32,000 nt of DNA from Alkalilimnicola ehrlichii MLHE-1 (GTDB lineage Bacteria > Pseudomonadota > Gammaproteobacteria > Nitrococcales > Halorhodospiraceae): the NCBI RefSeq assembly GCF_000014785.1, contig NC_008340.1, positions 1,320,001 through 1,352,000 of the forward strand, in the 5' to 3' direction. Positions 1 to 5,088 of the stretch are shown one piece after another. The notes beneath the pieces are model-generated. The model did no database searches. It was given only the letters and a program-made list of their open reading frames with translations, and was not told where the DNA came from. The position numbers and the translations under genes are program-made. Each line of letters begins with the position of its first letter. The first letter of the stretch is position 1.

Positions 1-1513
1 GCGCCCGCGCAAGACCCGGTAGAGCACCAGCGCGAGGAAGCAAATCATCGCGTGCGCCCGAATGCGCTCCGGCAGCCGGTGGTAGACCGGCGCGATTTCA
101 ATCTCGCTCTTGAGTACCCGGAATCCACGCTCGATATCGGCCAGGGAGCGGTAACGCTCTACCACAGCTTCCGCCCCCATGTCGGTGAGGCTGGTAACCA
201 GCAGTAGCTTGCCGTCCAGACGTTCGGCAGCCGCCCAGGCGGGCTCATCGATGGTGTAGCTGAATTGCGGCGAGCCGAGATCGGCCTTGATGATCGCGCT
301 CATGCGCCTCTCCAGCACGGCCTTGTGGAAGCGCTGGTAGGCACTACGGTCGGTGGAACGCCGCCCACGACCGGGCTGGCCAGCATCCTGATTATCGAGT
401 CGCTCGGCGAGTTGGGCACCAAGGGCGTCAAGCTCTTCGATGGTCTGCCGACGCTGCGCGCTCTGCTCGGCGGCCCGTTCGGCATTGTGGGCCACCACCA
501 GGCGTCGGCCCTGCCAGGTGGTTTCGGTCACCACGTCCTGACTAGGCTCGGTGACGGCGGTTTCCAGTTGCGTATGCAGAGACTCCATCACCTCGGTGAA
601 GTCCCCGTAACGCCGGGCGGGTACAGCCAGAATGTAGTCGACCGTCAGCCCCTGCTCGACGCCCAGTGCCTCCAGAGTGTCGATGTTATCGAAGCTGAGC
701 AGGCCGCGGTCGGCGACCACTACCACGCGGGCGAGCGCGAAACGCTCCAGCAGACGTTCAATCATTGGGGCCAGGGTGCGCGTCTCGGCGACATTCCCCT
801 CGAAGACCTCGTGGGCGATCGGCAGGCCTTCGGCAGTCTGGACCACCCCCAGCGCAAATTGGCGGCCAATACCGGCGGTGTCCTTGCTGAGGCCATGCTG
901 ACGGATATCGTCTTCCATCGCATGGGTGCCGTGGATGCGTACCGTGGTGAGATCGTAAAAGATGACGCTGAGATCCTGGTCAAGCAGCGGCCGCAACTGG
1001 CCGGCTACCGCACGCTCCACGGCCTCCTTGTGGTCCTCCAACGCATCCATGGCACGCAGGAGTTGCTCGTGGTGCACGGTCGAGGCATCGAGCCCGGGCA
1101 TGCTGGTGCTCTCGCGCAACCACTCCAGCGTGCCGCGTTTGCTGCTCGGCTCAGCGAGGCGGTTGAAAACCATGGCTCGGATGAGTGCCTCGGCATCGAA
1201 CTGTCGTCGGGAGGAGCGCAGAGCCCGTTTCAAGGCCCCATCCAGGCCTAACTCCTGCCAGAGCTGATGGAGGGTCCACACATCGCCAAAGGCGCGGGCG
1301 GTCTCGAACTGAGGCGCTTCAGGCAATGATTCAGGACGCCCCACCGCCCGTTGGAGTCCCTTGATGAGCGGCTCCAGGTCAGCTGCCTCAAGCTGATCAA
1401 GGCGACCCAGGCTGGCTACCACACGCTGTTTAACCTTGCCGTTGGCGTCTCGGTAGCCCTCGACCAACTGCAAATAGCGGCGCGGGCCGGACTTTGTGAT
1501 GCGCGTGTACATG
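1..1513 (-). CDS. IS1634-family (IS4-like DDE) transposase; the C-terminus lies beyond the window start
   Basis: Absent from the ORF track because it runs off the window. My minus-strand translation from the ATG (cat at 1511-1513) reads MYTRITKSGPRRYLQLVEGYRDANGKVKQRVVASLGRLDQLE... and stays open to base 1. DDE-type blocks are present: VIFYDLTT, VVVVADRGLLS, YRSLADIERGFRVLKSEIEIAPVYH. The listed + ORF 265..1251 is its antisense shadow. Confidence 0.8.
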
Positions 1514-1556
1514 GCATGACATTATGCCACCCAGAGACCTGCAATCAATAGCCAGC

Positions 1557-2156
1557 TTAGGATTCGCGTGACACAACAGCGGCTTGGCTGGTTCTGGCCG
1601 CGCAGATCAATCGCTTCAAGCACTTACGTCCCACAACCCCTTGGGTTTTCGGTCTGAAGTGTGGAACTTGGGCGCCCCAGGTCACGCTGGCGGGCATGGG
1701 CGTCTTGAACCTACTTGCACCCGTGAACACCACCACGGAATGGATGTGCTCTGGCGGGACACCAAGCGCTGACTCCAGTGCCTTCACGTGCTTGTAATTC
1801 TGGCGAAGGGGGTTCTGGAACTTGAAGGTTTTCTTGTAGATCTTCTGCGTCCACTGAGCCTGACGCTCGCCGCCGAAAATCCAGCCCTTCATGTTCTTTG
1901 TCTCTACCACGAAGATGCCGTAGCGAGACACGAAGATATGGTCGATCTGCGTGGTTCCGTCCGGTGTGGGTAGCGTGACGTTGTGCAGTCGGTGGTATTT
2001 ACTCGCCGGGAGCCTTAGCTTCGCTGCCAACTTGACCAAGGATTCGCCGACCAGCCCCTTGAACCATGGAGAGCGGAGTATCGCCATGATCAGGGCGATA
2101 GGAATCACCCACCACAGTGTCTTCAGGATTTCAGTTGTGATTAGGTTAGTGTCCAT
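1557..2156 (-). CDS. NERD (nuclease-related domain) protein with an N-terminal membrane anchor; the 3' end abuts the IS
   Basis: 199-aa ORF. It has an N-terminal hydrophobic helix (LKTLWWVIPIALIMAIL) and a NERD/PD-(D/E)xK-like core (QIDHIFVSRYGIFVVETKNMKGWIFG...QNPLRQNYKHVKALE...VVVFTG). Family assignment is by motif recognition only. Confidence 0.7.
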   Translation of the reverse strand: MDTNLITTEILKTLWWVIPIALIMAILRSPWFKGLVGESLVKLAAKLRLPASKYHRLHNVTLPTPDGTTQIDHIFVSRYGIFVVETKNMKGWIFGGERQAQWTQKIYKKTFKFQNPLRQNYKHVKALESALGVPPEHIHSVVVFTGASRFKTPMPASVTWGAQVPHFRPKTQGVVGRKCLKRLICAARTSQAAVVSRES

Positions 2157-2216
2157 GTCTTGTCATCAACGTGGCGCTAACCGGCGCGAGGCACGAGCGT
2201 CCGGTTGAGCAATTTG

Positions 2217-2693
2217 TTAGCGGTATAAAGTCAAAATCTTCCTGATAGCCAACTTAGCGGCAGCGAGCGGTATCACGGTCATGACAGGAACAAGCATCGC
2301 GCCCACGAACACAGCTCCAGACGTTGCAGGACTCCACTCGAGCGGGTTGAGATAGAACAGCGCCATAGCTCCGGTCGCCACCCCGCAGAGAAGGAGAGAC
2401 ACAGTCACCCGAAACTCCAGGGCCCAATACTGCGGCCACTGGTAAAGAACTTTATTCTCTTCCTCGTCCCCCGGCCGTAGCACATCCATGCCGAGTTTGT
2501 AGCTAACACCTACCAGCACAAGCGGAAGCCCGCCAAGGAAGGCAGGAAGCCCCTTTGCATCTCTAACAGACGAAGCCACCGCCTCGAAAAACTCGGGGTT
2601 TCGGTGCGCCAGGAGCGCGACCGCTAGAACGCAAAGAAGCTCGGGCGACACCAACAGAAGCCGCTTTAGGTCAAGGAGCTTCGCGAGCATCAA
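2217..2693 (-). CDS. small integral membrane protein, about 4 predicted TM helices, unknown function
   Basis: 158-aa ORF with four hydrophobic stretches (LLLVSPELLCVLAVALLA, LPAFLGGLPLVLVGV, VTVSLLLCGVATGAMALFYL, AVFVGAMLVPVMTVIPLAAA). Its ATG overlaps the upstream gene's stop as ATGA (2690-2693). Confidence 0.7.
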   Translation of the reverse strand: MMLAKLLDLKRLLLVSPELLCVLAVALLAHRNPEFFEAVASSVRDAKGLPAFLGGLPLVLVGVSYKLGMDVLRPGDEEENKVLYQWPQYWALEFRVTVSLLLCGVATGAMALFYLNPLEWSPATSGAVFVGAMLVPVMTVIPLAAAKLAIRKILTLYR

Positions 2694-3583
2694 TCGTGCT
2701 CCATGTGTCGCTCTTCTTTGATTCGCTCAAGTATAGCGGCCGTTTTCCGGTAGAGTTCCTCGGGTTCAGGGTCTCGCGCGAACGAGAAGTTCCTTACCGT
2801 TTCAGAGGTCCTGATTATTACCACATCATCGCCCTGCTTCCCCCGCACGTATCCTTTGCCGTATCCATCAGCGGCCATCAGGATGGCAGCATCTCCGATT
2901 GGCAACGATCCCGGTGCGTACGGCTTGTCCGCACTCTGCTGAACAATACCTTGGACATGCTCCGGCAGGTCGGTGTCGAGCGGCTCCCTTTGGCTGCTGT
3001 CCTCTTCGACTTTCATGCGGTCTGTGTTGCGGGACTTGAGGTAGTTCTTGAGATCCTCCCACAACGGACCGAACAATGGGTTGGGCGGCGACACGGTCGC
3101 TGATACGCGATATATTCCGTCTAATCCGTTGAGTTTGCGTGCAAATGAACGAAGATCAGCTATGGGGTCGACATCGCACCGCGCAAGAAGCTGGTTGTGC
3201 GAGGCATTGATAACCTCAGCCCAACGATTCATGAAGGTCGTATGCTCTATCTGATTGGACACATGGAGGAACGAGAGGCCCGAATGCTCGGGGACGTATA
3301 GGAAAGGGCTCGATGCGCGCGTGATATTGGGCTGCCGCTGAGTCGTCTCCTTGTGTTGCTCCGGATCGACTACCGAAACCTCGCCGTCTGGATCGTATTT
3401 CCCAAGACGCCCAAAAAAGTATGAGGATCGGCCATCGGAAAGCTCGCGGACGTCAAGGAACGTCCATGCGGAACCGTACCTCGTTATGCTCTCAGGCGCA
3501 CGCAGAGCGGCCTTTATGTCGGCGGTTTCAAGAGCGCCGGTCTTTACTACCCTCCCTAGGTAGTAGGTTCCCTTGCGGGCCAT
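2690..3583 (-). CDS. hypothetical 297-aa soluble protein of unknown family, translationally coupled to the 4-TM gene
   Basis: Long ORF in the AT-richer region with an ATG start and a GGGGGA Shine-Dalgarno-like run upstream. I saw no Walker, TIR, helicase or other catalytic motif. The overall layout (YYLGRV...YFFGRLGKYDPDGEV...ATVSPPNP...AADGYGKGYVRGKQGDDVVIIRT) vaguely recalls DUF4747-type proteins, but this is unverified. Confidence 0.7.
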   Translation of the reverse strand: MARKGTYYLGRVVKTGALETADIKAALRAPESITRYGSAWTFLDVRELSDGRSSYFFGRLGKYDPDGEVSVVDPEQHKETTQRQPNITRASSPFLYVPEHSGLSFLHVSNQIEHTTFMNRWAEVINASHNQLLARCDVDPIADLRSFARKLNGLDGIYRVSATVSPPNPLFGPLWEDLKNYLKSRNTDRMKVEEDSSQREPLDTDLPEHVQGIVQQSADKPYAPGSLPIGDAAILMAADGYGKGYVRGKQGDDVVIIRTSETVRNFSFARDPEPEELYRKTAAILERIKEERHMEHD

Positions 3584-3658
3584 GCAAATTCCCCCAGAGT
3601 CTTATTGTTGGTCTTCCGCTAACGGCCGGCTTCCAAACGGCCGGCGTCCAAGCCGATG

Positions 3659-4309
3659 TTAGCGCTGATGGGATGGCGCGACCCCAACCCGTCTGAGCGC
3701 CTCGGCGATGTCTCTCCGGTTTATCAGTTGGTAAGTGTTGTCGCCCATGTCTAGCTCGAAGTCTAGGGCGCCACACATGCCATTTATCCTGCCGTACCCC
3801 GGCGCGCGAACAGGTGCGTTCGGCTTGCCCTTGATTTCGTGCTTAGCTAAGTTGATGCGGATCGATTCAGCCATTCTGAAAACCGGCTCTAGCGCCGCAT
3901 CGTGGGCCTCCATGAGGGCAACGAACTCCGGATCCTCTTGGAGACGCTCAAGATGCCTCACCTTCATGAGAGCTCCTAGGTTGTGCTGATCCTGCTGGAG
4001 CCGACGCATCATGTGAGGGATGGCGCCGTTCTCGCGCCATGTCTTCAACTTGCGAATCCGGTGGCGCCACGTCCTGAGCAACTCGTATAACGCGAATATC
4101 CACATCTGAGACTGCGCCGACACAAACAGCGCCTGCTGAGTAGGCGTCCGCTCAATCTCAAAATATGTTCTTAAAAGGTTGTACTCTTGGTCCGTGATAA
4201 AGGAGTCGTTTATCGCGATGTTCATCCCCTGCATGTTGAGGAACATGTCATCGAACAGGACCAAGCTACGGAACATCGTATGGATCCGTGAGAAGTCGAT
4301 CTCGTCCAA
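3659..4309 (-). CDS. hypothetical 216-aa protein; the start is uncertain because an in-frame TAG lies just upstream
   Basis: ORF in the AT-richer cassette. The track start at 4309 is a TTG and the first ATG is codon 12. An in-frame 14-codon mini-ORF with a good SD lies immediately upstream, separated only by TAG (see findings). Confidence 0.6.
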   Translation of the reverse strand: MDEIDFSRIHTMFRSLVLFDDMFLNMQGMNIAINDSFITDQEYNLLRTYFEIERTPTQQALFVSAQSQMWIFALYELLRTWRHRIRKLKTWRENGAIPHMMRRLQQDQHNLGALMKVRHLERLQEDPEFVALMEAHDAALEPVFRMAESIRINLAKHEIKGKPNAPVRAPGYGRINGMCGALDFELDMGDNTYQLINRRDIAEALRRVGVAPSHQR

Positions 4310-4383
4310 CGCAGGCTAGAGCTCTTCGTCATGCTCGCTGTGGTCGTCGTAGTGCGCCATTACTCCACCCGCTAACATCTAAG

Positions 4384-4418
4384 CATTTATCTGCCGTGCG
4401 CAGCATGGCGGATAAATG
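4384..4418. repeat. 12-bp-stem hairpin (CATTTATCTGCC / GGCGGATAAATG, 11-nt loop), possibly the terminal structure of the IS91-family remnant
   Basis: The inverted repeat is read directly from the sequence, with one G-T mismatch. It lies about 280 bp downstream of the IS91-like transposase stop, where IS91-family ori ends sit. Confidence 0.35.
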
Positions 4419-4698
4419 TCTGTTGGACTGAGCCGCCCTGCCCGGAGGCACGCGCTGGGTGGTCTTCTATATAAGGGGGAAAGTATCAGGCGCCCGTGGG
4501 GCACTTCGCACCTAGCGGCGCGAACCGAGTAATGCGTGGGTCTTCCTTGAGCGACCACCGCCGGTCTCCTCGAAGCTGGCCGTGAGTTCGTTCCCTTGAT
4601 ACTGCACCAGCCCTGCCCGAATTCCAACCGATGGCCCGCAAGGGACCGCGCCTTGCTCTGAAGGCGGTCTTCTCCACACGTTCAGACGGTGCGTCGAG

Positions 4699-5088
4699 CT
4701 ACGGGGATCGTCGTCGTTCCGCCTCCTCCCGCAGCGCACGGGGTTGCAGTTCCGCGATGACGAACAAGTAGCCCGACTTGCATTCCGGGCAGGGGGTGCC
4801 AACAGCCGAGGCCTCACCCGCCAAAGCGGGCGGTTCAGTGTAGGCTGACAGTGCTTCCCGCACCTGCGCCAGCTTGGCCCTGTGACTGCGGTTAGCCAGC
4901 AGCCCAAAATGGCGGATTCGCATCAGCCCCTTCGGCAGCACGTGTAGGAGCACCCGGCGCACGAACTCCTCACCGGCAAGCGTCACCTCACGGCGCTTGC
5001 CGTTCGCCCGGTAGTCCTGGTAGCGGAACGTGACGCTGGCCTCGTCGATGGCCAGGATTCGGTCATTGTGGATGGCGCTGCGGTGCGT
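4699..5088 (-). pseudogene. IS91-family transposase remnant (C-terminal ~129 codons only)
   Basis: The frame is open from the stop at 5089-5091 down to 4699 and reads THRSAIHNDRILAIDEASVTFRYQDYRANGKRREVTLAGEEFVRRVLLHVLPKGLMRIRHFGLLANRSHR...CPECKSG. That is the characteristic C-terminal block of IS91/Y2 transposases. There is no N-terminal portion and no plausible start. Confidence 0.75.

Follow-up and report, generated by a model that had tools for sequence, protein, structure and literature searches.

What is the function of the two overlapping genes on the minus strand at positions 2217-3583 of a 32,000-nucleotide (nt) stretch of the Alkalilimnicola ehrlichii MLHE-1 chromosome (NC_008340.1, positions 1,320,001 to 1,352,000; the whole stretch is called the window here)? 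The upstream gene, termed A, encodes a protein of 297 amino acids (aa) and the downstream gene, termed B, encodes a small membrane protein. An original prediction, made from the sequence letters, described the pair as a soluble sensor or enzyme tightly co-expressed with a small multi-transmembrane effector, a logic typical of abortive infection, and proposed that it would be a distinct family. The analysis reported here supports that general logic and indicates, with a probability that we put at about 0.6, that the pair forms a RexAB-like module of the DUF4747 ('CarolAnn') type, complete in two genes. By analogy with the known Rex-like systems, A is the putative sensor, B is the putative effector, and the pair is most likely an abortive-infection system.

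Gene A occupies 3583..2690 of the minus strand in the list of open reading frames (ORFs), with an ATG start and the stop codon TGA at 2692..2690. Gene B follows at 2690..2217 on the same strand, and gene calls give 157 aa from its ATG. The two ORFs of the original prediction are present at these positions, on the minus strand, and the second is better read as 157 aa than as the proposed 158 aa. The ATGA that the two genes were said to share at 2690-2693 was a misreading. The minus-strand letters of the junction are CAC GAT TGA TG C, so that 2693..2690 reads TTGA and the ATG begins at 2690. Within the junction sequence TTGATG (2688..2693, minus strand), the stop codon of A (2692..2690) and the ATG of B (2690..2688) overlap by 1 nt. 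An alternative TTG start for B at 2693..2691 would give a 158-aa protein (2693..2217, minus strand) and a 4-nt overlap (TTGA). Judged from the sequence, the ATG with its TGATG overlap is the better call, because gene callers in three independent assemblies start a 157-aa protein at the last base of the A stop codon, because the 14 sequence homologues of B measure 156-158 aa, and because the nearest relatives show TAATG or TGATG without an NTG at -3.

A Shine-Dalgarno-like tetramer, GGAG (2699..2702, minus strand), lies 8 nt upstream of the ATG and 5 nt upstream of the TTG, and it could act as the ribosome-binding site of B. The tetramer sits in the final codons of A, within the ATG-GAG that encodes M-E of the conserved RHMEH tail (2699-2710, minus strand; coded by CGn CAC ATG GAG CAC), and ATGGAG is found again at the equivalent position in many homologous loci. 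Two constraints may underlie the conservation of RHMEH, one on the protein and one on the ribosome-binding site. A separate observation concerns the opposite end of gene A. Its first 15 nt (ATGGCCCGCAAGGGA, 3569-3583) recur exactly, in inverted orientation, at 4631-4645, about 1 kb upstream and near the remnant of an IS91-family element. By a rough estimate, about 0.01 such 15-nt matches are expected by chance in 5.4 kb. The inverted copy does not extend into a homologous ORF.

The linkage of A and B was measured in a scan with one genome per species, which gave 80 loci with an A homologue, 75 of them testable for a downstream ORF. These loci include Gamma-, Beta- and Deltaproteobacteria, Bacteroidota, Verrucomicrobia, Planctomycetes, Lentisphaerae, Nitrospira, Chlorobium, Acidobacteria, Elusimicrobia, one metagenome-assembled genome of Clostridiaceae, and others. 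In 73 of the 75 testable loci, the A homologue is immediately succeeded by an ORF of 120 aa or more, and 71 such ORFs are 145-170 aa long. Frequent separation of the two genes in other genomes had been named in advance as evidence against a functional pair; the co-occurrence check instead found them as neighbours in 73/75 testable genomes. A word search with B retrieved only 14 homologues, and tblastn placed B immediately downstream of the A homologue in 55 of the 80 genome loci.

The junction itself is conserved. Among the 73 loci, 29 have a 1-nt overlap (TRATG), 23 have a 4-nt overlap (NTGA), 14 have a gap of 0-11 nt, 4 have a longer overlap, and 3 have another arrangement. A 1-nt or 4-nt stop/start overlap is found in 52/75 related loci, and the overlap of the two genes is not due to chance. 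The pairwise identities of A and B co-vary with a Mantel r of 0.79, a value reached by 0 of 999 permutations. This indicates co-inheritance of the two genes. The 216-aa gene upstream of A and the NERD gene downstream of B were considered as further parts of the module and rejected, as the former is found in 0/80 loci and the latter in 1/80. A third conserved gene was not found, so the module consists of two genes only.

In A. ehrlichii MLHE-1, a hypothetical protein labelled DUF4747 matches protein A at 100% identity, and 803 homologues are recorded for it. The original prediction had suggested a resemblance to DUF4747, and the family searches bear this out. The precomputed PF15931.11 (DUF4747) annotation marks A and most of the 120 homologues listed out of the 803. 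In the local scan with PF15931.10, A itself had no match at E<=10, and 2 of 26 close homologues matched (best E 2.3e-5). A profile built from the 26 homologues retrieves 481 cluster representatives. Two distant members of the family score 31.5 bits (P0270) and 25.8 bits (P0275) against PF15931.10, whose gathering cut-off is 27, so that P0270 passes. At the level of sequence, A is a real member of DUF4747, with its subfamily at the edge of the older model PF15931.10. Family alignments show three conserved motifs in A: PPNPLFGPLW (166-175), GDAAILMAADGYGxG (230-244), and the C-terminal RHMEH.

AlphaFold2 was used to predict the structure of A. The model is a confident alpha/beta globular protein (predicted local distance difference test, pLDDT, 87.8; predicted template modelling score, pTM, 0.85), in agreement with the earlier view that the 297-aa protein is soluble. 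When the model was compared with the PDB by Foldseek, the only matches at E<=0.001 were two chains of 8TWQ, the lambda RexA structure (chain B, E 1.1e-6; chain A, E 1.4e-4; probability 1.00). The next PDB match was E. coli RdgC (2OWL, E 2.6e-3). The appearance of RexA followed by RdgC reproduces a published link, as the RexA structure paper reports structural homology between RexA and RdgC (PMC11077077). In BFVD, five uncharacterised phage proteins match the A model with E values from 1e-12 to 4e-8 and template modelling (TM) scores up to 0.60, and a phage RdgC is found at rank 8. The model indicates that A is a cytoplasmic protein whose predicted fold is nearest to lambda RexA and next to RdgC. 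Sequence searches of the PDB, both direct and profile-based, gave no relevant match for A or B (eL6, E 0.14; a designed repeat protein, E 0.0011), and no match for either protein was found in PHROGs, NCBIfam or PADLOC.

For B, averaging hydropathy over the family reveals four hydrophobic stretches, at about residues 9-31, 52-63, 95-113 and 123-143. The AlphaFold2 model, predicted from a 15-sequence alignment, is all helical with four long helices (pLDDT 87.3). Both results agree with the four-helix membrane protein that had been proposed. The N and C termini are positively charged. The best-conserved region is the hydrophilic, acidic and aromatic central loop (LRPGDEEENKVLYQWPQYWALEFR, residues 71-94; consensus LRPGDEEENKVLYEWPxYWALE). 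The positive charge of the termini suggests that both are cytoplasmic, in which case this loop would be cytoplasmic too. In the phage protein Sbash gp31, substitutions in the corresponding region abolish defence (PMC6426596). The top BFVD match of the B model is a 165-aa Sbash protein (E 0.21, probability 0.75), which is not significant alone; Sbash gp31 has the same length, 165 aa. 'Siphoviridae sp. ctylc9', the source of the best A-like match, also gives a B-like match at rank 8, which is not significant (E 1.4).

The genomic setting of the pair was then compared between species. In the immediate neighbourhood of 72 loci, the genes are highly variable. They include type I restriction-modification subunits, reverse transcriptases, MmeI, AAA_15/AAA_21, DUF4917, HEPN_Swt1, DUF499, PLD, PIN and DarT, together with ordinary metabolic genes. 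The pair is often located among defence genes. In Shewanella baltica, an HEPN_RiboL-PSP gene and a PARIS-like AAA_15/AAA_21 + DUF4435 pair are directly upstream of the homologous A and B, and this compact defence island sits between molybdopterin-enzyme genes and metH. In Pseudomonas, the pair is a solo insertion amid housekeeping genes. In Vibrio cholerae, the homologous pair is bracketed by copies of CCCTTAGGCGGGCGTTA at 241-257, 1112-1128 and 2625-2641 of the examined contig stretch (3 matches versus 0.01 expected), and the neighbouring cassette carries an MNT/HEPN-type pair. We take CCCTTAGGCGGGCGTTA to be the end of the attC (VCR) repeat of the V. cholerae superintegron; if so, the V. cholerae pair travels as one cassette. 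Among the loci whose called genes were read, none has prophage genes next to the pair, and tblastn of A against 72,556 plasmids gave a single distant match (24% identity, a Picosynechococcus plasmid). In A. ehrlichii, the region from about 1500 to 4500 of the window has 56% guanine-cytosine (GC) content versus about 68% in the flanks. The pair is cargo of a variable, low-GC island rich in insertion sequences (IS), and it lies outside any prophage immunity region.

Lambda RexAB and Sbash gp30/31 suggest, by analogy, a mechanism that may be added to the fold, topology, linkage, mobility and context described above. A would sense an infection cue, either a phage protein or a protein-DNA intermediate, and would probably do so as a dimer. 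It would then engage the conserved central loop of B, and B would dissipate the membrane potential, so that ATP drops and the infection aborts. The stop/start overlap would hold the A:B ratio constant. A fixed ratio could matter, because the RexA:RexB ratio has been proposed to influence Rex exclusion. Sensor-triggered membrane depolarisation is the mechanism proposed for Rex-like systems (PMC6426596, PMC6426606, PMC7542560), and Sbash gp30/31 and CarolAnn gp44/43 were shown experimentally to block heterotypic phages (PMC6426596, PMC6426606).

Several results weigh against a RexAB-like module. At the sequence level, hhalign gave the A family 0.5% probability against the lambda RexA family (24 sequences), 0.2% against lambda RexA alone, 0.5% against CarolAnn gp44 and 0.8% against Sbash gp30. 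B likewise reached 0.6% against RexB and 0.3-0.4% against gp43 and gp31; each comparison with a phage gp protein used one sequence against a profile. Pfam RexB (PF15968) had no match at E<=10 among 71 B homologues, and the match of B to the Sbash protein is insignificant by itself. No Pfam or PADLOC RexA match was found for A, although lambda RexA itself scored 1e-97 (Pfam) and 9e-110 (PADLOC). The PADLOC RexA/RexB models match lambda and not the A+B pair. Lambda RexA has its own Pfam family, PF15969, with a narrow enterobacterial distribution. The global superposition of A on RexA is also poor (TM score 0.30-0.32, root-mean-square deviation about 14 A), so the fold match rests on the Foldseek local 3Di score. 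RexA is a two-domain protein that changes conformation, and the low TM score could fit a different domain orientation in the model. The A family is acidic (median isoelectric point, pI, 5.7) versus a pI of 8.6 for lambda RexA, and non-specific DNA binding of the RexA kind may fail in A-family proteins given this acidity.

The context and the literature add further points of the same kind. In the called genes read for four families of loci, the pair has no cI-type repressor as a neighbour. Across the 72 loci, the commonest neighbour families include no repressor family, and a tblastn search with A found no match in 50,697 deposited phage genomes. The literature searched reports no phenotype for any member of this subfamily, and to our knowledge the RexB channel model is unproven even for lambda.

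These points leave room for other explanations, the main one being a plain toxin-antitoxin or addiction role, in which B is a small membrane toxin restrained by A and the pair stabilises cassettes or islands without sensing phages. The V. cholerae pair, read as a superintegron cassette beside an MNT/HEPN-type toxin-antitoxin cassette, is consistent with such a role. Tight stop/start coupling with fixed stoichiometry is typical of toxin-antitoxin pairs, and some immediate neighbours are PIN, HEPN or DarT genes. However, A, with 297 aa, two domains and a RexA/RdgC-like predicted fold, is far larger than antitoxins usually are, and Pfam recognises no DNA-binding antitoxin domain in it. We consider this role unlikely, and the boundary between toxin-antitoxin and abortive-infection systems is blurred, so that it overlaps the RexAB-like reading rather than excluding it. 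Somewhat less probable still is a housekeeping-like DNA-transaction factor, with A as an RdgC-like DNA-binding modulator of recombination or replication and B as its membrane anchor. The place of E. coli RdgC directly after RexA among the PDB matches and of a phage RdgC at BFVD rank 8 would suit it, as would the RexB-independent DNA-binding role of lambda RexA in the lysis-lysogeny switch (PMC11077077). It is opposed by the absence of a Pfam RdgC match, by the patchy, horizontally transferred distribution of the pair (low-GC island, integron cassette, solo insertions), by an obligatory membrane partner that has no RdgC precedent, and by the acidity of the A family.

A prophage function was also weighed, either as a modulator of the lysis-lysogeny switch like RexA, which biases the lambda switch (PMC11077077), or as a holin-type lysis module, for which single B homologues gave weak holin matches (Phage_holin_3_2, E 0.021; a holin at BFVD rank 10, E 1.6). 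Where called genes were read, no cI/Cro-type repressor, integrase, endolysin or phage structural gene stands beside the pair, and these families are not among the commonest neighbours of the 72 loci. With no homologue in the 50,697 phage genomes as well, a prophage function is very improbable. The holin reading was rejected, as its expected neighbours are missing from the gene contexts that were read. The analogies drawn in the original prediction with Kiwa (KwaA/KwaB) and with minimal CBASS or Pycsar systems carrying a transmembrane effector share with the pair the general design, a soluble protein with a small multi-transmembrane protein. Neither protein matches any PADLOC model, the Kiwa, CBASS and Pycsar components included. 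No DUF4868, cyclase or nucleotidyltransferase match was found by Pfam in A or its 26 homologues, and the predicted fold of A matches RexA and not a CD-NTase. Membership in these three families is refuted by the Pfam, NCBIfam and PADLOC searches, and a system of this type is the least credible of the explanations considered.

The island around the pair in A. ehrlichii carries further genes. In the genome record, the order is pst phosphate-transport genes, Sel1, an IS91-type Y2_Tnp remnant, the orphan 216-aa gene, A, B, NERD, an IS4-type DDE transposase, a 32-aa Zn-ribbon fragment, OsmC, a MazG-like gene, a Schlafen-like helicase gene with an S24 peptidase domain, and RhuM/Fic. The NERD gene (1557-2156, minus strand; PF08378, E 5e-35) has an aberrant tail and is followed directly by the IS4-type DDE transposase (1-1512, minus strand), which extends past the left end of the window. 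The 32-aa fragment beyond the IS4-type element is of the topoisomerase Zn-ribbon type, and the insertion probably split a NERD+Zn-ribbon gene. On the other side, the orphan 216-aa ORF (3659-4309, minus strand) lies upstream of A on its strand, at a distance of 75 nt, and had no Pfam, NCBIfam, PADLOC or PHROGs match. The 75-nt gap contains a tandem 15-nt direct repeat, AACGGCCGGCTTCCA / AACGGCCGGCGTCCA (3621..3650, no strand assigned), with units 38-67 nt upstream of the A start codon and the palindrome GCCGGC in each. This repeat could be an operator or a hairpin, and its membership in the module is uncertain. At its other edge, the low-GC island is bounded by the IS91-family Y2 transposase remnant (4699-4986, minus strand; PF04986, E 2e-10, C-terminal part only). 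The island has no tRNA gene as a marker, and a promoter/terminator scan of 1400-4800 was uninformative. Further along the island, outside the window, the MazG-like gene, the gene for the 793-aa Schlafen-group-3-like helicase with its S24 peptidase domain, and the RhuM/Fic gene may be extra defence or toxin cargo.

RexAB was described before any other phage-exclusion system, and how it works is still unsettled. No new principle is revealed by the present pair. What it provides is a bona fide DUF4747 protein with a RexA-like predicted fold tied to a four-helix membrane partner, and a junction of the two genes conserved across many phyla, outside prophages, in defence islands and as an integron cassette. 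The invariant motifs of A, the conserved central loop of B and the co-varying partners form a broad comparative set, from which it may be learned what the sensor recognises and how it communicates with the membrane protein. A gap in standard defence annotation is also identified, as PADLOC 2.0 finds lambda RexAB and misses the A+B pair. A wider proposal, which we hold tentatively and at slightly less than even odds, is that a large cross-phylum family (about 480 clusters at 50% identity) of chromosomal and integron anti-phage modules, missed by PADLOC 2.0 and absent from deposited phages, has an acidic RexA-fold sensor, maybe non-DNA-binding, wired to an effector without sequence similarity to RexB. 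If true, this would be a bacterial Rex lineage independent of, or ancestral to, the phage lineage, and easier to study than lambda RexAB.

The pair can finally be compared with the known systems. Its soluble-then-membrane gene order, on which the proposal of a distinct family was partly based, is the rexA-rexB order of lambda, and the sizes are close (279+144 aa in lambda versus 297+157 aa in A+B). RexA is the best PDB match of the predicted fold of A, and the four hydrophobic helices of B have a counterpart in those reported for RexB (PMC6426596). The differences are that sequence similarity is undetectable in either protein, that RexA is basic whereas A is acidic, and that RexA proper is found only in Enterobacterales (36 clusters) whereas the A family spans many phyla. 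In addition, the lambda genes are 15 nt apart in the prophage immunity region beside cI, whereas A and B overlap in a chromosomal island. With Rex-like systems in general, the pair shares a small four-transmembrane protein directly downstream of a RexA-like gene, both in the window and in 73/75 related loci. The prophage immunity site beside a cI-type repressor is not shared, although Sbash shows that this location is not universal even among phage systems (PMC6426606). RdgC (PDB 2OWL), the next structural match of A, is more distant, with a weaker match (E 2.6e-3), no membrane partner, and no Pfam RdgC match for A.

The architecture is also that of Sbash gp30/31 and CarolAnn gp44/43. A DUF4747 protein with a downstream four-transmembrane protein was published for these phages (PMC6426596, PMC6426606), and this also argues against a distinct family. 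In both, a cytoplasmic DUF4747-linked protein is followed by a four-transmembrane protein (165-178 aa), and the genes are annotated as overlapping; the 165-aa Sbash protein is the best, non-significant viral structural match of B (E 0.21). The phage systems differ in being prophage-encoded and in Actinobacteria, in having A-type proteins of about 370 aa whose DUF4747 link is a weak HHpred match (PMC6426606), with no Pfam match for CarolAnn gp44 in our scan, and in their hhalign values of 0.3-0.8% against the window proteins, obtained with a single phage sequence against a profile. In bacterial genomes, the label 'DUF4747/CarolAnn' is already used for proteobacterial operons, which are counted among known or predicted immune operons (PMC13373217). 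The Acinetobacter operons of this name are located downstream of capK-capS and resemble the window pair, by description, in being chromosomal, proteobacterial and often beside restriction-modification genes (PMC13373217). They differ in their upstream genes, as no capK/capS-like pair was recognised upstream of A, where the orphan 216-aa ORF is found. In light of these comparisons, the window pair is best read not as a new kind of system but as a chromosomal member of the Rex-like DUF4747 kind.

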